Origin: a phage
DNA: 64,000 nucleotides
Sequence record: PZ091942.1
Strand: one strand, 5' to 3'
Shown: positions 3,103 through 43,698 of the stretch, piece after piece
Position numbering within the stretch: position 1 is the stretch's first letter
Layout of the letters: each line of letters starts with the position of its first letter
Position numbers and translations under genes: made by a program
The notes under the pieces: model-generated
What the model was told of the DNA's origin: nothing
The model's input: the letters and a program-made list of their open reading frames with translations, nothing else
The model's database searches: none

Positions 3103-3264
3103 ATGATTAAGTGGCTAAAACGTGTCTTCCATTGTCATGATTGGAAGATTATTAACACCCGTCCTCTGGTCTATACAGATTCAGATGGGAACAATGACAA
3201 GGGCACACGTTACGTTATTCAGTGTAAGGTGTGTGGTGATGTTAGTCATCGTGATGTAATCTAA
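3103..3264 (+). CDS. small Cys/His-motif protein, tandem paralog 1
   Basis: ATG 3103 (track start 3079 is TTG); KWLKRVFHCHDW ... QCKVCG shared with next two ORFs. Confidence 0.45.
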   Translation: MIKWLKRVFHCHDWKIINTRPLVYTDSDGNNDKGTRYVIQCKVCGDVSHRDVI

Positions 3265-3273
3265 GGAATCATT

Positions 3274-3438
3274 ATGATTAAATGGTTCAAACGTCTATTT
3301 CATTTCCATGAGTGGGAAGATCTTCATACTTATGAACTGACGATCACAAATAAACTTACTGACAGAGAGCGACAAGGGTTGCGTATCTACTCTCGCTGTA
3401 AAGTGTGTGGTCTGCACAAGAAAACAGACCTGATTTAA
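3274..3438 (+). CDS. small Cys/His-motif protein, tandem paralog 2 (54 aa, not in ORF track)
   Basis: ATG after AAGGAA; MIKWFKRLFHFHEW ... RCKVCGLHKK; below track length cutoff. Confidence 0.45.
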   Translation: MIKWFKRLFHFHEWEDLHTYELTITNKLTDRERQGLRIYSRCKVCGLHKKTDLI

Positions 3439-3447
3439 GGGGGTGTT

Positions 3448-3657
3448 ATGTTCTTTCGTAAGAAAAAGCCCGAAGATTCTGGATGTAAACATGAGTGGGT
3501 GATCACTGAAAACTTACATATCACTCACGCTAAAGACACTCCAGCTGAAGCGAAAGAGTCTCGTGTATCTCGTGTCTGTAAACGCTGTTTGAAAATAGAA
3601 CAGCACAAAGTCCCCGGTCATATCTATCACGATGTGGCCTTGCGTATCTTCAGTTAA
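3448..3657 (+). CDS. small Cys/His-motif protein, tandem paralog 3
   Basis: ATG after GGGGG; CKHEW ... VCKRCLK motif. Confidence 0.45.
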   Translation: MFFRKKKPEDSGCKHEWVITENLHITHAKDTPAEAKESRVSRVCKRCLKIEQHKVPGHIYHDVALRIFS

Positions 3658-21944: not shown

Positions 21945-22474
21945 GTCTTTTAGGTTCTCAAGAATTACACAGCGTTATTGATAATGGCTTTTTAGATGCG
22001 GAGCATAAATATGTTAACGCTGCTAGCGTGGATATCCGTATTGGTGATACTATCCTTGTTGAAGAACAGGCTGACGGCATTGTTGACATTGATGCTAAAG
22101 AAAACCTCAAGTGGAAAGAAGTAAAAATCCCTGAAGATGGTATCGTTATCACTCCGGGACAGTTCTTCTTAGCTCACTCGATGGAAGAGTTTAACCTTCC
22201 AGATAATATCTCAAGCCTGTTTGTACTCCGCTCCTCAATGGCTCGTTGTGGTTTAAACCACCTCCATGCTGGTTGGGCTGATGCAGGGTTTAACAGCAGT
22301 AAACTAACCTTTGAATTTCATAACGTTACCCATAATCATAGCTTACGAGTTCGTGCTGGGATGCGTGTTGGTCAAATGGTTATGTTCGAACACTCTCACG
22401 CTGGTGATGACTCTTATGCAGTGAAGGGTCGATACAACGGCAGTAATGGTGTAGTTGCATCTAAGGGTGTATAA
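21941..22474 (+). CDS. dcd: dCTP deaminase
   Basis: ASVDIRIGD and LRSSMARCGLNHLHAGWADAGFNS..LTFEFHN match dCTP deaminase/dUTPase-fold signatures. Confidence 0.75.
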   Translation: MSLLGSQELHSVIDNGFLDAEHKYVNAASVDIRIGDTILVEEQADGIVDIDAKENLKWKEVKIPEDGIVITPGQFFLAHSMEEFNLPDNISSLFVLRSSMARCGLNHLHAGWADAGFNSSKLTFEFHNVTHNHSLRVRAGMRVGQMVMFEHSHAGDDSYAVKGRYNGSNGVVASKGV

Positions 22475-22479
22475 CCAAG

Positions 22480-22671
22480 ATGAAAGAGGAAAAAGCTACT
22501 TACTTAGCTGTTGGTTTTATAGTTGGGGCATTTGCTATGGGAGTATTTATATCTAACGTTGGTCCAGATTCTAGCGTTAAGATTGAGACGAGAAGAGCTG
22601 CTTGTGAAATAAATCTCCCTCGTAGTCAGGTCTGTGTAATGCAGTTTGTCCCTAAATCGGTTGACAGATAA
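22480..22671 (+). CDS. small membrane protein (1 TM)
   Basis: Hydrophobic YLAVGFIVGAFAMGVFISNV segment. Confidence 0.4.
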   Translation: MKEEKATYLAVGFIVGAFAMGVFISNVGPDSSVKIETRRAACEINLPRSQVCVMQFVPKSVDR

Positions 22672-22883
22672 TGGAGTTTGGAACAATGAAAAGACGTTGG
22701 GTAGTTCGTATTCACTGGAGTAGTGGTACAGAGTCAATGGGTATTAGGAATACCCGTCAAGAAGCTCGCGCTCATAAGAAGTTCTTGTTAAGTTGTGAAA
22801 GCACAATTAATAAGATCACTATCCACAAAGCTCAAGACTTTAAATCAGGTCGTTTCTATATCAGCGGAAAGGTACATTACTAA
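22671..22883 (+). CDS. hypothetical protein, tandem paralog a
   Basis: NTRQEAR..KK ... I.IHK ... SGRFYISGKVHY shared with next ORF. Confidence 0.45.
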   Translation: MEFGTMKRRWVVRIHWSSGTESMGIRNTRQEARAHKKFLLSCESTINKITIHKAQDFKSGRFYISGKVHY

Positions 22884-23098
22884 TGGATAAATTATGGGCA
22901 GTTCGTACTAAATGGGCTAACAAAGCTCTTGGTGGTGATTGTATTCAATTATTCAACACAAGACAAGAGGCTCGTCTTGCTAAGAAAACTATAAAAGCTA
23001 CAAAAGCTTTAGGAATCGCTGAAAAGGTGGAGATTCATCGTTGGATTGAAAATATCCATAACAGTGCTGGATTCATATCCAGCAAGGTTTATTACTAG
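22883..23098 (+). CDS. hypothetical protein, tandem paralog b
   Basis: NTRQEARLAKK ... AGFISSKVYY; ATGA-coupled to paralog a. Confidence 0.45.
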   Translation: MDKLWAVRTKWANKALGGDCIQLFNTRQEARLAKKTIKATKALGIAEKVEIHRWIENIHNSAGFISSKVYY

Positions 23099-23122
23099 TT
23101 GGTAGTAGATATGATAACTCTC

Positions 23123-23131
23123 AAATGTATA
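23123..23131 (+). promoter_or_regulatory. AAATGTATA promoter-like motif
   Basis: Near-copy of TAATGTATA motif, 37 nt upstream of ATG 23169. Confidence 0.3.
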
Positions 23132-23168
23132 TACAGTATAAGAATATTGTATGAAACAGGAGAGAGTT

Positions 23169-23498
23169 ATGTTAGATTTGAGTAAAGTGGCCCCGCCATC
23201 TGAAGAGATTAGCAAAGCTAAAGTTATGCAGCAGTTCTACCATCGGGATATGCTTGGTCGTTATATCAAGAATCGTGATGTTGTTGCATGGTCTATTGGA
23301 AATCAAGGTTATCTTCTCAAAGTGTTGCAAGTTACTGGCTCAACAGCCAAGCGTGTTAAGGTGTATGACCCTGAAATGGGGCGTTCTAAGTCTGTAGACC
23401 CACAGAACTGCATCGTTATTACCCAGCAAGTAATGGATAATATTGAACGCAATGTAGCGAACTCAACTAACTTAGAGGGAGAATCTCCAAATGCATAA
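23169..23498 (+). CDS. hypothetical protein
   Basis: ATG with AGGAG RBS (track start 23151 lacks RBS). Confidence 0.5.
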   Translation: MLDLSKVAPPSEEISKAKVMQQFYHRDMLGRYIKNRDVVAWSIGNQGYLLKVLQVTGSTAKRVKVYDPEMGRSKSVDPQNCIVITQQVMDNIERNVANSTNLEGESPNA

Positions 23499-24057
23499 TA
23501 ATGTCTTCGACTTACCAGAACTGACACGAGTGGGTTCTAGCAACCCATTCTCTACAACTGACTCTTCTATCTCTCGTCTAGAGGGAATGAATAAACTGAT
23601 CAGTGGTAACAGTCTAGAGCACATCCTATGCGGTGTGCAGGCTAACCTTGAGCTTCTACACATCAAAGCAAAGAATTATCACTGGAACGTCTCTGGAGCT
23701 GGTTTCCAAGGTGTTCATGGTATGTTCGATGAATTAGAAGACTATGCTCGTGAAACTGGTGATCGGGTAGCAGAGCGAATGCGTTATCACTGTATTAAAG
23801 TGGATGCAACAGCTAGTAGCTATCTTGGTTGTGCTTGGTTCCGAGAAGGTAACGCTGATCTCGACATGGACGGTATGCTTTCCGACATGTGCATGACTCT
23901 TATGTGTATGATTGAGAAGATGGATGAGTTTGATTCAGACTTGTGCACCTATCCAGTAGACCAGAGTATGCTTCAAGAAATTAATGAAGGTCTTGGCAAG
24001 TTCTGTTACTTCGTCAAGAGCAACATGTCCCACTCTAGTGGCGATGTGTCTTACTAA
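23491..24057 (+). CDS. Dps-like ferritin-family protein (putative)
   Basis: LCGVQANLELLHIKAKNYHWNVSGAGFQGVHGMFDELEDYARETGDRVAERM matches the Dps signature. Confidence 0.5.
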   Translation: MHNNVFDLPELTRVGSSNPFSTTDSSISRLEGMNKLISGNSLEHILCGVQANLELLHIKAKNYHWNVSGAGFQGVHGMFDELEDYARETGDRVAERMRYHCIKVDATASSYLGCAWFREGNADLDMDGMLSDMCMTLMCMIEKMDEFDSDLCTYPVDQSMLQEINEGLGKFCYFVKSNMSHSSGDVSY

Positions 24058-24078
24058 TCAAACCTCCGCCCTGTCTCT

Positions 24079-24300
24079 TTGTTTAAGAGGTGGGGCGAAC
24101 TTCTTTATAAGGATATGAATATGTTTTCAGCAATCGTATGGTCTGTGTGGGCAATTTTTGTTGGTGGTATCGTTTATCTGGCTCAGAAGCAGATGCTTAA
24201 AGAGAATCCAAATGATGCTAAACCTATTAAACATGGTAGCATTGCTCTGGTAGTTTTCTCTGTTGTCATTCCTTTCCTTCTCCACCTGTTGACTGCATAA
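24079..24300 (+). CDS. small two-TM membrane protein, tandem paralog 1
   Basis: IVWSVWAIFVGGIVYLA ... IALVVFSVVIPFLLHLL; likely start at internal ATG (MNMFSAIVW). Confidence 0.45.
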   Translation: MFKRWGELLYKDMNMFSAIVWSVWAIFVGGIVYLAQKQMLKENPNDAKPIKHGSIALVVFSVVIPFLLHLLTA

Positions 24301-24309
24301 GGGTTTGAT

Positions 24310-24495
24310 ATGATTTCACTGATTGTGTGGGCCGTGTGGTCATTAATAGTTGGTACTGTTATATATAAAGCTCGAAATTTAGCAATTAAAGAAAACCCAG
24401 CAGAAGAGGATGTTAAAGCTATCAAGCTGGGTAGTGTTGTTCTGGTACATTTTGCTATAACACTACCTCTTGTTATTATTCTTTGTATGCTATAA
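24310..24495 (+). CDS. small two-TM membrane protein, tandem paralog 2
   Basis: IVWAVWSLIVGTVIY ... KENP ... VVLVHFAITLPLVIIL parallels previous ORF. Confidence 0.45.
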   Translation: MISLIVWAVWSLIVGTVIYKARNLAIKENPAEEDVKAIKLGSVVLVHFAITLPLVIILCML

Positions 24496-24507
24496 GGAAT
24501 CCAAAGA

Positions 24508-24684
24508 GTGAAACTAAACCTACCTGAAGAATTACAAGCACATGCCATTATCGTTAGTGGCTGTGTGATGGGTCTTGGTCAAACAAAGAAGATTGCTCAC
24601 GACTTAGCAAAAGGTCAGTATAAATCTTTTATTGTTGTTCCTGCTACCCAGCGTCATATCAACCTGTTTATTAACAAGGAATAG
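24508..24684 (+). CDS. small hypothetical protein (58 aa, not in ORF track)
   Basis: GTG after AAGGAA; third-codon positions A/T-biased like confirmed genes. Confidence 0.3.
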   Translation: MKLNLPEELQAHAIIVSGCVMGLGQTKKIAHDLAKGQYKSFIVVPATQRHINLFINKE

Positions 24685-24685
24685 A

Positions 24686-24964
24686 ATGAGTAAAGTAATT
24701 AAGTTTTATAGTAATTCATGTGCTCCATGTGCAGCTATGGCTCCTGTGTTTAAGAAGGTTGTAGCTGATTACAACGTAGAGGTTGAAGAAGTAAATATCT
24801 CTGAAGGTGATGGTCGAGAGCGAGCCATTGAATACGGTGTTCGCAGTATCCCAGCCTTTGTTGTCCCTGACCGTAATAGTGGTGCACATTATAGTTTATC
24901 AGGTATGCAGACCGAAGCAAACCTGAAAGCATTTTTGGATACAGCTCTGAATGGTAATCGATGA
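24686..24964 (+). CDS. thioredoxin/glutaredoxin-like protein
   Basis: ATG with AAGGAA RBS (track start 24632 rejected); CAPC active-site-like motif and RSIPAF cis-Pro region. Confidence 0.55.
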   Translation: MSKVIKFYSNSCAPCAAMAPVFKKVVADYNVEVEEVNISEGDGRERAIEYGVRSIPAFVVPDRNSGAHYSLSGMQTEANLKAFLDTALNGNR

Positions 24965-25421
24965 TTTAGAGTATATCCCCGAAACTGGAGAGTTCTTCCG
25001 AAATGGTAAGAAGTTAGGAGGAACTCGAAGTAAGTACATAACCCTACGGTTTAAAGGGAAGGTACACAAAGCTCATAAAGTGGCATGGTTCTTTTATTAT
25101 GGAGAATGGCCTTCTTCTCAGATAGATCATATCGACAGAAACAAGAAGAACAACTCAATACAGAACTTAAGACTGGTAGACACTTCGACAAACTGCCACA
25201 ACCAGTTCGGGGCTAGAGTATCAAACAAGGAAACAGGGCTTCAAGGTGTTAAGGTTGTCAAATATAGATCAGGGACTATTAGATATAGAGCTGTTATCTG
25301 TATTGATAAAGTAGACATACATCTAGGTATGTATGGCACTGCCGAAGAAGCCCATCAAGTTTACATGAATCGAAAAAAGGAACTTTTAATTGAACGAACA
25401 ACTACAAGCAACACTGATTGA
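24951..25421 (+). CDS. HNH homing endonuclease (HNH_3/AP2-type)
   Basis: IDHIDRNKKNNSIQNLRLVDTSTNCHN HNH motif. Confidence 0.7.
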   Translation: MVIDDLEYIPETGEFFRNGKKLGGTRSKYITLRFKGKVHKAHKVAWFFYYGEWPSSQIDHIDRNKKNNSIQNLRLVDTSTNCHNQFGARVSNKETGLQGVKVVKYRSGTIRYRAVICIDKVDIHLGMYGTAEEAHQVYMNRKKELLIERTTTSNTD

Positions 25422-26043
25422 AGCAATGGGTAGTGACAAATCTGTAGTCAACGCAGCTAGGGTATCTTTCGGTGTTGTTCGAGAAGGTGACTTAAATGAG
25501 AGAGACACAAAACTTATCAATTTCCTTGCACGGGAAAAACACTGCACGCCTTTCCGTCATCCGACAATTAGCTTCCGATGCAAAGCGCCAATCGCAATTG
25601 CGAGACAGTTGGGCAAGCATCAAGTTGGATTCTCGTGGAACGAAATGTCCCGGAGGTATAAAGATGGAGCAGTTGAATGCTTTGTCCCTGAAGAGATTTT
25701 TGAAAGACCTTCAGACCTCCATGCAGGTTCGGGGAGCCTCCTTATCGGAGCCAATGGTGAAGCAGCAAAAGTAGCCTTTGAACGTGCTTATACTTTAGCT
25801 GTTCAGACATACGAAGGGTTGTTATCAGAAGGTGTTGCACCAGAACAAGCTCGATTCGTATTGCCTCAGGGCATGATCACTGAGTGGGTCTGGACAGGTT
25901 CTTTATTCGGTTGGTCAGAGTTATGTCGTCAGCGACTGTCAGACCACGCTCAGTATGAAGTACGAGTGTTTGCATCAACTATTGATGAAGAGCTTCGTAA
26001 AATCTACCCAATCTCTTGGGATGCATTACGTGAAGCCCACTAA
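25390..26043 (+). CDS. thyX: ThyX-like flavin-dependent thymidylate synthase family protein with non-canonical RHR motif
   Basis: AARVSF, HCTPFRH, KAPIAIARQ, SWNEMSRRY, SDHAQYE align with ThyX; RHR position reads KHQ; start TTG 25390 or ATG 25426. Confidence 0.7.
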   Translation: MNEQLQATLIEAMGSDKSVVNAARVSFGVVREGDLNERDTKLINFLAREKHCTPFRHPTISFRCKAPIAIARQLGKHQVGFSWNEMSRRYKDGAVECFVPEEIFERPSDLHAGSGSLLIGANGEAAKVAFERAYTLAVQTYEGLLSEGVAPEQARFVLPQGMITEWVWTGSLFGWSELCRQRLSDHAQYEVRVFASTIDEELRKIYPISWDALREAH

Positions 26044-34206: not shown

Positions 34207-34415
34207 GTTAATTAGTTTTCTTTTGATTTTAATAGAGAATCAAAGTCCTAGGAGTCCTCAACCTAAATCAAGGATTTCCTTAATTCTCTATTTTTATCTC
34301 GCAGGTGTCTCCTGCCCTTCCGGTAGTCTCTCAATTTCTAACAAACTTATGAGAGGTGGTTGTCCGCGCCTTATAGTCGTCGGTCCCGTGCAATAGTTTT
34401 ACTAGCTATACCATA

Positions 34416-39206: not shown

Positions 39207-39245
39207 GCCCCCTTCCTTTTTACAGGTTGGGGGCTTTTCTTGTTT
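39207..39245. terminator. bidirectional terminator at convergence of the two modules
   Basis: GCCCCC / GGGGGC stem with 16-nt loop; T-rich on plus side and A-rich upstream, so U-tracts on both strands. Confidence 0.5.
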
Positions 39246-42200
39246 ACTCCTTAGCTCGAACTCTAACACGGAGTTTAGCTTGACGCTTACCTCTCTCCAA
39301 CTTGTCAGACAGAGAACCACGTTTGACTTTCAACTCTCCCTCGTCATTATACTTCTCCAAGAACTGTAAATACTCTTGTCGAGTAGTTGTCTTGTAAGAA
39401 GGAATCTTAACATCAGGATTCTCTTCAATCACACGTCTAATCTTCGCTACATCATCTCGCCCTAAAAGTTTCCCTTTAGCTTGTTCAGCAGTAGAACCAA
39501 AGATTTTCTCCAGTGCTCTAGATTTGTTACCACCCGCTGAAGCAGCACCAAGTTTCGCAATAGCAGAGTAATCGTCAGCACTAAACCAAGCCACTGGATT
39601 ATCTCCATATTGTTTCTTGTTCTCCGCAGCAGTTTGTAAAGCACGCACAAAGCGACGGTTATTACCAGCTTTGTCAGCACCATGAACCCTATCTAGAACC
39701 TCCGCTACACTAGCCAGCTCCTGCAAGTCTTTCCCTTCGATAAAAGCTTTCTCTGCTTTGTTAGCAAAGTCATCTTCCTGCTTCTTAATACTTTCCAGTA
39801 TATCAGAGGAGGCTTGAGATCTTTCATCTTCCGGCAACGCCGAACGAACTTTCTCCATTTCCAACTCTTCATCCTGAAGTTTCTTCAACCCAGAATCTAC
39901 CTTCTTCGCATCTTCGATAGCTTTCGAAGTGTCTGCATCCACCTCTACCTTTCCATCCATATCACCAGTTGCCTTAGCAATATCTTTCTCGATTGGTGTC
40001 ATCTTCTCAAAATCCTTAGCAAACTTAGAGATATCAGATTCAATACGAGAGCGAGCATTCTGGTGCTCAGTAGGAGTCATGGGTTTCTCCAGAAGAGAGT
40101 AACGGTTATCCATATAAGAACCTGCAAAGATTTCTGCATCTTCCTTAGGAATGCCCTTATCCTCCATAGAACGCATCAGGCGCTTGTGAATGTCATCACG
40201 TTGACGTTGTACTGCCATACGATCATTCTCTGCTTCCTGAGCTTCCTTGAGCTTCTTATCACGCTGTACACGAGAGTCAATGTCGAATTTACGGTTCATC
40301 TCTTCCGCTTGCTCATACATCTTATTCCACTTAGCTTCACGAGCATCTTCTTCCGCTTCAGTGAGTCGACGTTTACGGTCGATGTAATCACTCTCTGCGT
40401 TGTGGATACGTTCAATGATACTACGGAAACGCTCTGGTGGTACAGGAGAGTTCTTCTCATGGTGAGCTGCTAACTGTTTCAGCGTACGACCTTCCTGAGC
40501 TTCACGTACTGACTCTGGCAGATCTTTCATCAGTTTCTCCATCTCCGATTTCTGAGCCGCTATAGCTTCGAGAGACTGCCTTTCTGTCTCTACCGCTGCC
40601 TTGGCATCACTACGAGCCTTAGCCCTGTTACGGAGCGTATCAAGACGTTCCTGACGTGCTTGCAGGTGTTTAGCTGCTGCTTCGTACTGAGAGTTCTTAT
40701 TAGCTTTGTTGAACATGTTAACTTCACGGTTATAGGTGTTGATAAAGCCATCCCATATATCCTTCATCTGTCCCACTTCCAAAGCATCTTCCCTTCCAGC
40801 CCTCTCTGAAGCTTTAAACTTCCCATCTACAAAATCTTCCATCATCTTACGCATAGCATCTTTCTGAGCTGGACGTAATGGCTCTGCATCAAGAAGTGTA
40901 TTGATTTCACTGTGTAACTCTTTCTTCTGGTCAACCAGTTTAGGGGCATCAGCTTTGTCAATCTTCTTATTCTCTGCAAGAGCTTCCTCATACAGCTTGT
41001 TAAATTCATCATCACGTTGTTTCTGATACAGACGTTCAGACCTACGCTTCAGTGAATCCAAACTAGTCACGTTCCCACCAATACCTTTCTCCTCAGCACG
41101 TAATGCCTTGGTAGCAATATCAGAAGGCAGACCACGTTCCTTAACCCAATCAGCAAACGAAGAACGAACACGTTGTGACTTAGCAGCAGCAATACCCTGT
41201 TGAGAAGCAAGCTGGTTACGAGCCATCTCAGCATGACGTTCAGAGTTGTTCGCTTGGTCTTCCTGACGAATACGACGCATCAACTCTTTCGGGTCACCTT
41301 TATAAGAAAGGAAGTTCTCAGCTGTAGCTTTAGCCTTCGCACTTGCCGTATACAGAGAACGAGCAAAGCGATCTGCACGGTCTTTAGTAGCTTGACGAGC
41401 AGCACTTGACATAGCAGCCAGACGTTCGATTCCAGTAGCCGGTTTAACAGGCTCAGCCTCAACCTCAGGAGCTTTAGGAGCACGGGTAGGCAATGGCTCT
41501 GCTTGAACAGTTGGCTCCTCAGGGGCGCTCTCAGCAGCCTTGCTGGCCTCTTCTGCTTCTTGACGTTTACGAGCTTCTGAAACAGCACGACGTTGAGCAA
41601 CTAAATCTCTCGCTGTAGTAACTGGTTCTTGTGGCTCTGGCTCGGGAGTTGGCTCTTCCTGAATCTTACTAGCTTCGGCTTCCTGACGTCTAGCTTGAGC
41701 TTCCTTCAAAGCACGTCTTTGTGCGACCAAATCACGAGCAGTTAAAGGAGAGGTTTGAGGAGAGGAAATTTCTTCCGTCACAGTAGTAGCAGAAGGCTCC
41801 CGAACCGGTTCGATTTCCGGGTCATTTTGAGTTCTAAATTTAATGTCATCAACTTCAGGTTCTTTCTCCATCGCAGCACGAGCTTCATCAGCCTGAGCAC
41901 GAGCACGAGTTACTTCCATATCACTACGAGCAAGAGAACGAATAGCTTCGCTGTTAGCCGCCTGTTGACCTTCACGTTGAGAGCGAGCACGGTCAGAACG
42001 GAAACGGTTGAGAACATGTTTAGCAGCACCAAGTGGATTCTTAATCAGAACCGGAGGAGCAGCTTCTTTGAAACCGTCAGCAGTTAGAGAGGTCCAACCA
42101 CGGTCTTGGTTACTCATTAACTTAGCTGTGTTATTCAGAGTGAAAGCATCTTGGATTGGGTTGAAACCTTCAGGCATACCTTTGAGTTTCTTCAAACCAC

Positions 42201-43662
42201 CAATAGCAGTTTTCATCTCTGGAGATACATTATCAGAAAGCTTCTGTAGTTCAGTAGCTTTCTCAATGAAGTTATTGAAGTCTTCACCATCACGAGCTTT
42301 GAATCGGTTAGCTTCATTATAGAAAGTTTTGTAAGCATCAATGAAGTCACGGTCAGCTTGAGTACGGTTCTTAATATCCATAGCACTACCGGTAAAGTCA
42401 CCACTAGCACGAGCAGATGTTAATTCACGGTCAAGATTATCTAGTACGTCAGATAGAGACTTAGTGTTGTCTTTCGTATAGTCAGCCATTGCATCTTTCA
42501 TTGCTACAGCTTGTTTCTGGTTATGTTCGTTATCAGCGTTCGCTTTACCTTGACGCTTATTAGGAGCAGCAAGAGGATTCAAACCCGGAACATTAGAACG
42601 ATCTTCCAGAATAGTAGCAGCCTTCTCAGCACGACCTTGGTCAGTGTTCAGGATACGCTGAGCAGCAGGAGAATCCATAGCCACAGCATCAGTAACACGG
42701 AAACCATTCTCGTCCAGAAGGTTAAGGGCAGAAGCAGTGTTAGCATTGTCAGCTTTAGAATACGCTTCACGTAATTCATCAGCATTAGTAGCACTACGTA
42801 TCGCTTCATCTTCAGCAGCAATATCTGTCTTCACATGATCAGGAGTACGGTCAAAGACTTGAGGACTAGGACGACTTATCAATCCATGAACCCCACCGAT
42901 AGCCCCACCGTAAGCAGCACCCATCGCACCTTCTTCTACAGCACCTTCAATAATATTAGCAAGAGTAGTGTCATCACTATATTTGTTCTGTGCTTCAGCA
43001 GCACCTACAAGAGCACCACCTTTAGCACCAGCCACTGCGTTAGATGCTACACTCTGACCAACACGACCTAGAGTAGTAGAAGCAGTGCCTGTCATCCCCG
43101 GAAGAATCTTCTGAGCTGCAAAGTTAGCACCACCAACTAAACCAGCATCAAGAACAGACTTCTCTTCACCCTCTTCTGGAGTTTGGTCTGCATAAGCTCT
43201 ACCTGTCTCACGAGCTGCAATAACAGCAGCAGCTACAGCAGGGTTAGCAACTGTCAAACCGATATCAGCAGCGACACCAGCATACTGACCAGCTGACTTC
43301 CCAATCCCATCTTCAATCTTAGAGAGACGTTCTTCTAATAAATTCTTAGAGTTCTCTTGAATACGCTTACCATAGCTTGTCTGTGAACTAGTTAGATTCT
43401 CTCCAATCTCAACTAATCCACCAATACCTCTAGCAGCACTAGCTGCAATATTAGCACCACCTGATTGAATAGCATTGGACACACCTTGAGCAAAGTCACC
43501 AATTAATCCCGGTTGTTCTTCTTGTTTCAGAGCTGGAGCCGCCTCAGGAATTGTTCCACCTGCTGCTTTATATTGTTCTCGCATCTGAGACTGTTGCTCA
43601 GGGGAGGCATTCAAATACGCAGGGCTTTTAGAAGCTTCTTCCCACGGTTTTAAGTTAGCCAT
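39244..43662 (-). CDS. large virion protein (1472 aa; internal/ejection or tape-measure-like, function unassigned)
   Basis: AAGGAG RBS and TAATGTATA motif upstream; Gly/Ala-rich N-terminal segments then very long charged coiled-coil. Confidence 0.6.
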   Translation of the reverse strand: MANLKPWEEASKSPAYLNASPEQQSQMREQYKAAGGTIPEAAPALKQEEQPGLIGDFAQGVSNAIQSGGANIAASAARGIGGLVEIGENLTSSQTSYGKRIQENSKNLLEERLSKIEDGIGKSAGQYAGVAADIGLTVANPAVAAAVIAARETGRAYADQTPEEGEEKSVLDAGLVGGANFAAQKILPGMTGTASTTLGRVGQSVASNAVAGAKGGALVGAAEAQNKYSDDTTLANIIEGAVEEGAMGAAYGGAIGGVHGLISRPSPQVFDRTPDHVKTDIAAEDEAIRSATNADELREAYSKADNANTASALNLLDENGFRVTDAVAMDSPAAQRILNTDQGRAEKAATILEDRSNVPGLNPLAAPNKRQGKANADNEHNQKQAVAMKDAMADYTKDNTKSLSDVLDNLDRELTSARASGDFTGSAMDIKNRTQADRDFIDAYKTFYNEANRFKARDGEDFNNFIEKATELQKLSDNVSPEMKTAIGGLKKLKGMPEGFNPIQDAFTLNNTAKLMSNQDRGWTSLTADGFKEAAPPVLIKNPLGAAKHVLNRFRSDRARSQREGQQAANSEAIRSLARSDMEVTRARAQADEARAAMEKEPEVDDIKFRTQNDPEIEPVREPSATTVTEEISSPQTSPLTARDLVAQRRALKEAQARRQEAEASKIQEEPTPEPEPQEPVTTARDLVAQRRAVSEARKRQEAEEASKAAESAPEEPTVQAEPLPTRAPKAPEVEAEPVKPATGIERLAAMSSAARQATKDRADRFARSLYTASAKAKATAENFLSYKGDPKELMRRIRQEDQANNSERHAEMARNQLASQQGIAAAKSQRVRSSFADWVKERGLPSDIATKALRAEEKGIGGNVTSLDSLKRRSERLYQKQRDDEFNKLYEEALAENKKIDKADAPKLVDQKKELHSEINTLLDAEPLRPAQKDAMRKMMEDFVDGKFKASERAGREDALEVGQMKDIWDGFINTYNREVNMFNKANKNSQYEAAAKHLQARQERLDTLRNRAKARSDAKAAVETERQSLEAIAAQKSEMEKLMKDLPESVREAQEGRTLKQLAAHHEKNSPVPPERFRSIIERIHNAESDYIDRKRRLTEAEEDAREAKWNKMYEQAEEMNRKFDIDSRVQRDKKLKEAQEAENDRMAVQRQRDDIHKRLMRSMEDKGIPKEDAEIFAGSYMDNRYSLLEKPMTPTEHQNARSRIESDISKFAKDFEKMTPIEKDIAKATGDMDGKVEVDADTSKAIEDAKKVDSGLKKLQDEELEMEKVRSALPEDERSQASSDILESIKKQEDDFANKAEKAFIEGKDLQELASVAEVLDRVHGADKAGNNRRFVRALQTAAENKKQYGDNPVAWFSADDYSAIAKLGAASAGGNKSRALEKIFGSTAEQAKGKLLGRDDVAKIRRVIEENPDVKIPSYKTTTRQEYLQFLEKYNDEGELKVKRGSLSDKLERGKRQAKLRVRVRAKE

Positions 43663-43698
43663 AATTTCTCCTTATAAATAAAAATGTCCTACCTCCTA

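Follow-up and report, generated by a model that had tools for sequence, protein, structure and literature searches.

The window is the whole 64,000 nt stretch of phage DNA analysed here (record PZ091942.1). A megablast search with nt 22,000–26,000 returned 99 phage records, nearly all of them phiEco32-group Escherichia phages, with nucleotide identities of up to 93%, and on these matches the window can be assigned to a phiEco32-like (Kuravirus-type) coliphage. The gene that is the subject of this report (nt 23,491–24,057, + strand) is an ORF running from ATG to TAA and is predicted to specify a Dps-family mini-ferritin of 188 aa (21.1 kDa, pI 4.7). Its position and length are exactly those given in the initial annotation, and the peptide quoted there as a Dps signature, NLELLHIKAKNYHWNVSGAGFQGVHGMFDELEDYARETGDRVAERM, corresponds to residues 52–97 of the product. 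A Shine‒Dalgarno-like sequence (GAGGGAG) is found 9 nt upstream of the start codon. The protein shares 98–99% amino acid identity with its counterparts in KBNP1711, ECBP2 and Bas88, and 82% with gp67 of phiEco32, of which the gene is the orthologue.

Directly upstream lies a gp68-like gene (nt 23,169–23,498, + strand), which codes for 109 aa from the start annotated in related phages, the longest ORF beginning at nt 23,151. Its stop overlaps the start of the Dps gene by 8 nt, an arrangement annotated likewise in phiEco32 and Bas88, and translational coupling of the two genes is possible. The gp68-like protein matched PHROG 10984 (E = 6.6e-63, from residue 7 of the longer ORF) but no Pfam family, and PF23835, one of the precomputed domains given for a few homologs, was not reproduced. 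The AlphaFold2 model (pLDDT 82) is a small SH3-like beta-barrel followed by a C-terminal helix, for which fold searches returned weak matches of the KOW/PWWP/Tudor type (best E = 5.5e-3, TM 0.4–0.5). Homologs overlap the Dps gene from upstream in Privateer and LAh_8 as well (BLASTp, E = 6e-17 and 5e-19), while the homolog in phage 7-11 adjoins the thioredoxin gene and lies 1.3 kb from the Dps gene (1.1–1.3 kb among 7-11-like phages). The idea that gp68-like proteins and Dps form a general functional pair was rejected after 86 loci were searched with HMMs, as the gp68-like gene was present in eight loci of podophages with the C3 morphotype and in none of the 78 other viral Dps loci within 4 kb. 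In view of this confinement the pairing is best taken as inherited synteny within one lineage.

A putative promoter for the phage sigma factor, AAATGTATATA (nt 23,123–23,133, + strand), lies 18 nt ahead of the longest gp68-like ORF. It matches the published phiEco32/SU10 consensus (tAATGTATAtA), a single-element motif whose role as a promoter for the phage sigma factor (gp36) has been described (PMC4281155, PMC8948821), and in SU10 a promoter was reported upstream of CDS68 (PMC4281155). The exact 10-mer AATGTATATA occurs four times in the window, compared with an expected 0.16 copies, and none of 100 shuffled sequences reached this number. A block of 35 nt around the motif is shared at 100% identity with phiEco32 and Bas88, in contrast to its divergent flanks. 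With this conserved motif standing ahead of the gp68-like gene, Dps probably stands second in a middle transcription unit. Scanning near the Dps gene for the sigma-70 consensus gave fewer sites than in shuffled sequences, and none upstream of the operon, for which the phage-sigma motif is taken to be the signal that matters. At the other end, 10 nt past the Dps stop codon, a terminator-like scan picked out a stem-loop (nt 24,067–24,097, + strand) that has 13 bp in its stem and a weak T-rich tail behind it. Its predicted folding energy is −18.6 kcal/mol (z = −2.7; one of 200 shuffled sequences folded as well), and phiEco32 has the same two stem arms around a different loop. The hairpin may serve to attenuate transcription or to stabilise the RNA.

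The order of genes in the window is that of phiEco32 and Bas88, in which the genes for primase/helicase, DNA polymerase exonuclease, nucleotidyltransferase and dCTP deaminase, several small ORFs and the gp68-like gene precede Dps, and small ORFs, thioredoxin, ThyX, ligase, PhoH and DNA polymerase follow it. The Kuravirus orthologues (phiEco32 gp67, SU10 CDS67 and those of KBNP1711, ECBP2 and Bas86–89) have the same length as the window protein and occupy the same slot, between the gp68-like gene and the genes for a small membrane protein, thioredoxin and ThyX. They differ from it by allelic differences only, although in the window an additional gene, for an HNH endonuclease, lies between those for thioredoxin and ThyX. 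In Privateer the order is thioredoxin, gp69, Dps and a small NrdD-like gene; in 7-11 the ThyX gene is directly upstream of Dps; and in LAh_8 the genes for the anaerobic ribonucleotide reductase (RNR) large subunit and its activase precede Dps, from which the activase gene is separated by two small ORFs. The Dps gene sits in a module for replication and nucleotide metabolism in all three of these phages, as it does in Kuravirus.

Family Assignment, Fold and Ferroxidase Site

When searched as a single sequence, the protein matched the Pfam Ferritin family (PF00210) with an E-value of 2.4e-7 and a score of 31.2 bits (gathering score 24.5 bits), the match covering residues 56–99 only. The match to PHROG 3636 extended over the full length (E = 1.3e-52), and E. 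coli Dps (E = 3.5e-27) and the distant viral members fall into the same PHROG. When the PDB was searched by phmmer with the single query, 60 rows were listed, of which the first 56 were Dps proteins (best E = 1.9e-9). A profile was then built from a family alignment of 23 members (alignment A1), and its 60 matches in the PDB were all to Dps proteins or Dps chimeras (best E = 7.9e-19), with alignments across all four helices. Taken together, the Pfam, PHROG 3636, phmmer and family-profile scores place the resemblance to Dps far beyond chance. Chains of ferritins or bacterioferritins were absent among the PDB matches of the family profile at E ≤ 1e-3, and the sole ExxH motif (E54-x-x-H57, in helix A) is not conserved, His57 being replaced by Tyr in most relatives. 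Identity as a ferritin or bacterioferritin was rejected, since all significant sequence matches and the listed top fold matches were Dps proteins and the single ExxH is not conserved.

Against the NCBIfam equivalog for E. coli-type Dps (NF006975) the protein scored 34.8 bits, far below the cut-off of 114, and scores with the other NCBIfam Dps equivalog models were likewise far under their cut-offs, which points to a divergent Dps subfamily and not to an equivalent of host Dps. A recent capture of a host dps gene was also rejected, as identity to E. coli Dps is 18% and, among 1.84 billion cluster representatives searched, 12 matched at E ≤ 1e-10 (487 at E ≤ 1e-3). The low identity and the few close representatives indicate an old, divergent clade, and these counts mark the Kuravirus-type proteins as a small, divergent branch. 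Several of the matching representatives are long proteins, but the idea that they are informative fusions was rejected, Pfam giving the ferritin domain alone. One of them, P0133, also matched PHROG 16075 (function unknown) besides its ferritin domain, and another, P0079 (4613 aa), has a short match to Dps and no ferritin-like domain by Pfam.

An AlphaFold2 model of the monomer, built on alignment A1, has a mean pLDDT of 82.9, with values above 90 for residues 41–180. Helices are predicted at residues 42–66, 72–99, 108–113 (the B-C helix), 126–146 and 155–177, and an additional N-terminal helix (26–38) at low confidence. The predicted fold is that of a Dps four-helix bundle with the typical short B-C helix. 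The model lacks a fifth, C-terminal E helix, so that this feature of the 24-meric maxi-ferritins and bacterioferritins is missing along with a conserved ExxH, a motif of their intra-subunit di-iron site. These proteins, and the ferritin-like cargo of encapsulins, belong to the same four-helix-bundle superfamily and share the oxidation and storage of iron; no evidence of an encapsulin-type targeting peptide was seen in the window protein. A Foldseek comparison with the PDB returned only Dps proteins among the best 50 matches, at target-normalised TM-scores of up to 0.92, and the match to Dlp-2 of Bacillus anthracis (1jig) had a score of 0.90 and an RMSD of 1.2 Å. More generally, the bundle and B-C helix of bacterial Dps proteins (Mycobacterium smegmatis Dps2, 2z90/4m35; B. 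anthracis Dlp-2; Staphylococcus aureus Dps, 2d5k; E. coli Dps, 1dps/1f30) are matched at target-normalised TM-scores of 0.8–0.9, although identity to the solved proteins is 18–25%. The window protein also differs from bacterial Dps in being encoded by a phage, apparently under a phage middle promoter, and in having an acidic N-terminal extension of 45 residues instead of a Lys-rich tail.

The ligands of the ferroxidase centre (H64, H76, D80, D91 and E95, with the adjacent W65) are specified by codons 64–95 (nt 23,680–23,775, + strand) and lie in helices A and B. In an alignment (hhalign) of the family profile with E. coli Dps, for which the reference sequence used is identical to that of PDB 1f30, H64, W65, H76, D80, D91 and E95 fall on H51, W52, H63, D67, D78 and E82 at a constant offset of 13. 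In E. coli Dps, H51, H63, D67, D78 and E82 are established as residues of the ferroxidase centre and W52 as the adjacent Trp. The set of ligands and their spacing are the same in the two proteins, and the Trp adjoining the first His is conserved. All six residues are invariant in the 23 members of alignment A1. In a second, broader alignment (A2) of 22 members, which include Privateer, 7-11, LAh_8, distant metagenomic representatives and E. coli Dps itself, H64, W65, H76, D91 and E95 are again invariant, and position 80 is Asp in 19 members, Glu in two and Gln in one. The catalytic ligands are thus kept down to about 25–30% identity, and their conservation in 23 close and 22 distant members argues for selection on catalysis. 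The ferroxidase site of the window protein is predicted to be intact. The initial annotation had proposed a Dps-like ferritin-family protein, which loss of the ferroxidase residues or of a ferritin-like fold would have contradicted; the profile searches (with Dps proteins alone matched by the family profile), the predicted four-helix bundle with its B-C helix and confidently modelled core, and the complete set of ligands aligning with E. coli Dps all bear this proposal out. In our assessment it is very probable that the protein belongs to the Dps family and has kept its ferroxidase site intact.

Distribution among Phages

The identity of the gene is not new, as it has long been annotated in phiEco32-like phages, as gp67. 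In the phiEco32 record (EU330206, a 2008 accession) gp67 (ABY52868) is named ‘DNA-binding protein’ and described in a note as a ‘member of the Dps family’, and elsewhere the product is called ‘DNA binding protein’, ‘integrase’, ‘ferric iron binding protein’, ‘DNA protection during starvation protein’ or ‘hypothetical protein’. None of the results obtained for the Dps gene supports the label ‘integrase’. Relatives were detected by tblastn in 134 of 50,697 GenBank phage records, from phages of Escherichia, Shigella, Salmonella, Cronobacter, Proteus, Aeromonas and Synechococcus, and at a coverage of at least 80% an intact gene is present in 98 phage records. A pattern scan of IMG/VR found at least 352 viral contigs with Dps relatives, and the viral structure library BFVD holds Dps folds from Bacillus phage G, the Lactobacillus phages LP65 and Semele, crAss-like viruses and many uncultured phages.

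Within the podophages of the C3 morphotype, Dps is a core gene of the whole lineage. In SU10, CDS67 was reported to contain a DPS domain and to be among the few middle genes common to all five C3 phages then sequenced (PMC4281155). The description of Privateer reported Dps in CsCl-purified particles and pointed out the homologs in Kuravirus (PMC7881722). Ferritin-like proteins of Lactobacillus phages were described by Kyrkou et al. (PMC6669764), and Benler et al. found DPS genes in the ‘Gratiaviridae’ and in 36 other gut phages, for which they proposed that the proteins guard against oxygen and iron toxicity (PMC8008677). Dps homologs had been called unusual in phages in the initial annotation. 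This holds in so far as they are uncommon (well under 1% of sequenced phages), yet it overstates the case for a documented protein that is a core gene of one lineage and has relatives in so many GenBank records and IMG/VR contigs. The other phage Dps proteins (those of PHROG 3636 from Privateer, 7-11, GAP52 and LAh phages, those of Lactobacillus phages Semele and LP65, and the DPS of ‘Gratiaviridae’) share the fold and family of the window protein, but the additional N-terminal extension is of Kuravirus type and the gp68-like neighbour is restricted to the C3-podophage lineage. A search of the literature found no biochemistry, purification, structure or knockout of any phage Dps. What the present analysis adds is the second place of the gene in a predicted middle operon, the conserved promoter motif, the overlapping, lineage-specific gene for an SH3-like protein and the lack of a Lys-rich tail.

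Proposed Role and Alternatives

By analogy with solved Dps proteins, the window protein would assemble as a hollow dodecamer of 23 symmetry with ferroxidase centres between paired subunits, one subunit supplying H64 and H76 and its partner D91 and E95, with D80 and W65 nearby. Such centres would oxidise Fe(II) with H2O2 or O2, and Fe(III) would be deposited within the shell, so that both Fenton reactants would be removed. The gene would be co-transcribed in the middle operon with the replication/nucleotide module (dCTP deaminase, thioredoxin, ThyX and DNA polymerase), and the benefit would be that replicating phage DNA and redox-sensitive enzymes are shielded in the infected cell. We consider it reasonably likely that the protein is a dodecameric Dps that oxidises and sequesters iron during the replication phase and protects DNA and redox-sensitive enzymes; for the physiological role taken on its own, iron oxidation and sequestration in that phase, our confidence is moderate. 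Support comes from the family membership, the fold, the conserved ligands, the gene context and the expression of the SU10 orthologue, a middle gene product that was detected by mass spectrometry (MS) with six peptides and 35.8% coverage (PMC4281155). Protection from oxidative damage and sequestration of iron, the two functions suggested in the initial annotation, are plausible and were not first raised there, as a rationale of oxidative and iron stress had previously been proposed for phage Dps (PMC8008677, PMC6669764). The explanation leaves two features unaccounted for, the acidic, conserved N-terminal extension and the cysteines, of which there are seven in the window protein and 5–10 among Kuravirus-type proteins, at mostly non-conserved positions, compared with none in E. 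coli Dps.

The N-terminal extension (codons 1–45; nt 23,491–23,625, + strand) lies outside the Dps core and is predicted with low confidence (pLDDT 43–62), and it bears upon the name under which most of the GenBank records list the protein. E. coli Dps binds DNA, and the determinant is its flexible, Lys-rich N-terminal tail. The extension of the window protein carries one Lys, two Arg and five acidic residues (net charge −2, pI 5.4) and the C-terminal tail has a net charge of −1, so neither tail is rich in Lys or Arg. Across alignment A1 the tails of all 22 long-tailed members have a net charge between −3 and 0, and the short-tailed P0032 has +2. Two conserved motifs occur in the extension, MHxNxFDLP at the start and the segment R29-L-D/E-x-M33, and the extension is missing from the Privateer, 7-11 and LAh_8 proteins. 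Binding of DNA through a Lys-rich tail, in the manner of E. coli Dps, is unlikely for a protein of this composition, and with that tail missing the label ‘DNA-binding protein’ is unsupported, although the protein might bind DNA by another route. The protein might still act mainly in binding or condensing DNA, coating that of the phage or the host, with its iron chemistry secondary; the usual record name, the DNA binding of some Dps proteins such as that of E. coli, and the finding of the Privateer orthologue with CsCl-purified, DNA-filled virions (PMC7881722) are in keeping with this. The record name, however, was transferred by homology only, the protein is acidic (pI 4.7), the tails of the Kuravirus-type proteins carry a negative or zero net charge, and a purely architectural role does not need ferroxidase ligands to be so strictly conserved. 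We regard such a function as unlikely.

Detection by MS in CsCl-purified Privateer particles, for which only about ten virion proteins were reported (PMC7881722), raises another alternative, that the protein is associated with the virion, either in or on the elongated capsid or ejected with the DNA, much as ferritin-like cargo is held in HK97-fold encapsulins. The viral structure library also contains several long proteins that include a Dps-fold domain and bear the name ‘Prohead protease’, and the conserved extension could serve as a targeting peptide. Against this, the Privateer protein lacks the extension, the window gene is unfused and lies in the middle/replication module outside the late structural module, and a dense particle of about 250 kDa, loaded with iron, could be carried along with virions during purification. 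The MS data for SU10 were rejected as a sign of virion association; that sample was a PEG-precipitated lysate, explicitly not CsCl-purified, and contained DNA polymerase, thioredoxin and terminase, and with replication enzymes present it demonstrates expression and not packaging. The Privateer result is the sole real hint that a phage Dps associates with particles, and we judge a virion protein to be improbable. An extension of the idea, in which the Kuravirus-type Dps, with its conserved acidic extension and overlapping SH3-like partner gene, would be more than an antioxidant, namely a particle-associated nanocage on or in the extremely elongated C3 capsid, or one delivered with the genome, that protects or organises the genome in the virion or at entry, is more speculative still. 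The nucleotide-metabolism genes around Dps point in a different direction, towards an iron buffer or donor for iron-dependent, oxygen-sensitive enzymes of nucleotide synthesis of the phage or the host, with no part in protecting DNA. The anaerobic RNR genes shortly before Dps in LAh_8, the NrdD-like gene directly after it in Privateer, the ThyX gene next to it in 7-11, and the thioredoxin gene conserved nearby in phiEco32, Bas88, Privateer and 7-11 would all suit such a donor. On the other hand, the 12.5 kb surrounding Dps contain no annotated RNR gene in either phiEco32 or Bas88, and ThyX and thioredoxin, to our knowledge, need no iron. The co-location may also reflect the collinear replication module of one lineage, as the 78 unrelated viral Dps loci are without the lineage-specific neighbour. 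An iron donor seems about as improbable to us as a virion protein. Finally, the protein could be a decayed, non-catalytic remnant with a ferritin fold, co-opted or dispensable, as might be read from the short single-sequence Pfam match, the divergent C-terminal half and the 18–25% identity to solved Dps proteins. A remnant is hard to reconcile with a family profile that aligns over four helices, with the retention of every catalytic ligand at about 25–30% identity, or with a gene that is intact in 98 phage records and is one of the few middle genes common to all C3 phages (PMC4281155), and we consider it highly improbable.

Conclusions

The results confirm the existing annotation of a well-conserved, core auxiliary gene. 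The names ‘DNA binding protein’ and ‘integrase’ carried by GenBank records are unsupported by sequence, and ‘Dps-family ferroxidase / mini-ferritin’ would be more accurate. That the E. coli host has a Dps of its own tempers the case for the proposed benefit, and a lytic coliphage nonetheless keeps a divergent Dps with an apparently intact catalytic site.

In many deposited Kuravirus genomes, including the GenBank records of IME267, MLP3, ES17, EcoN5 and KBNP1711, among others, the Dps gene is labelled 'integrase'. None of the profile and fold results of this analysis support that assignment, and the label appears to have spread by copying between deposited records. The Dps protein of the window (nt 23,491–24,057) contains 13 methionines and seven cysteines (C47, C101, C114, C134, C139, C152 and C172). 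Kuravirus-type Dps proteins carry between 5 and 10 cysteines each, mostly at positions that are not conserved, whereas Dps of E. coli has none. In the neighbourhood of the Dps gene, a phage thioredoxin gene is conserved.

The start codon of Dps is overlapped by the gp68-like gene in Kuravirus, Privateer and LAh_8. This gene (PHROG 10984) lies at nt 23,169–23,498 (plus strand) in the window, and at nt 3139–3423, 3109–3462 and 1894–2160 of the relatives' loci L003, L005 and L004, respectively. Its occurrence is limited to the C3-podophage lineage, within which homologues retain 35–39% amino acid identity. The protein matches no Pfam family, and modelling predicts an SH3-like barrel plus a helix.

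The motif AATGTATATA, which agrees with the published phage-sigma promoter motif of phiEco32, occurs as four exact copies in the window (0.16 expected by chance), at 23,124, 34,414 (minus strand), 34,488 and 43,697 (minus strand). The copies at 34,414 and 34,488 form a divergently oriented pair, and that at 43,697 is a short distance upstream of a minus-strand ORF (nt 39,244–43,662) of 1472 aa. A plus-strand stem-loop with a 13-bp stem (-18.6 kcal/mol, z -2.7) is located 10 nt 3' of the Dps stop codon, at nt 24,067–24,097. phiEco32 has identical stem arms but a different loop. With Dps on one side and the small membrane-protein genes on the other, this hairpin may act as an attenuator or RNA-stability element.

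On either side of the Dps cassette, small genes have been duplicated in tandem. One duplication is an adjacent ORF pair (nt 22,671–22,883 and 22,883–23,098) matching PHROG 4939, the other an adjacent pair of hydrophobic ORFs of 61 aa each (nt 24,115–24,300 and 24,310–24,495) matching PHROG 9296. The thioredoxin and ThyX genes are separated by an HNH homing-endonuclease gene (nt 24,951–25,421, plus strand; PHROG 99, E 4e-41), which overlaps each of them. Since phiEco32 and Bas88 lack an HNH gene at this position, the gene probably arrived as a mobile insertion.

Matches in the viral structure library BFVD included Dps-fold domains within much longer proteins of uncultured phages (A0A6J7XDU5, A0A6J7WPK9 and A0A6J7WIS1; 333–763 aa), all named 'Prohead protease'. 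In P0133, another long protein among the representative hits, a PHROG 16075 part is joined to a C-terminal Dps domain. These proteins hint at a possible association with the capsid for some of the Dps domains found in phages.
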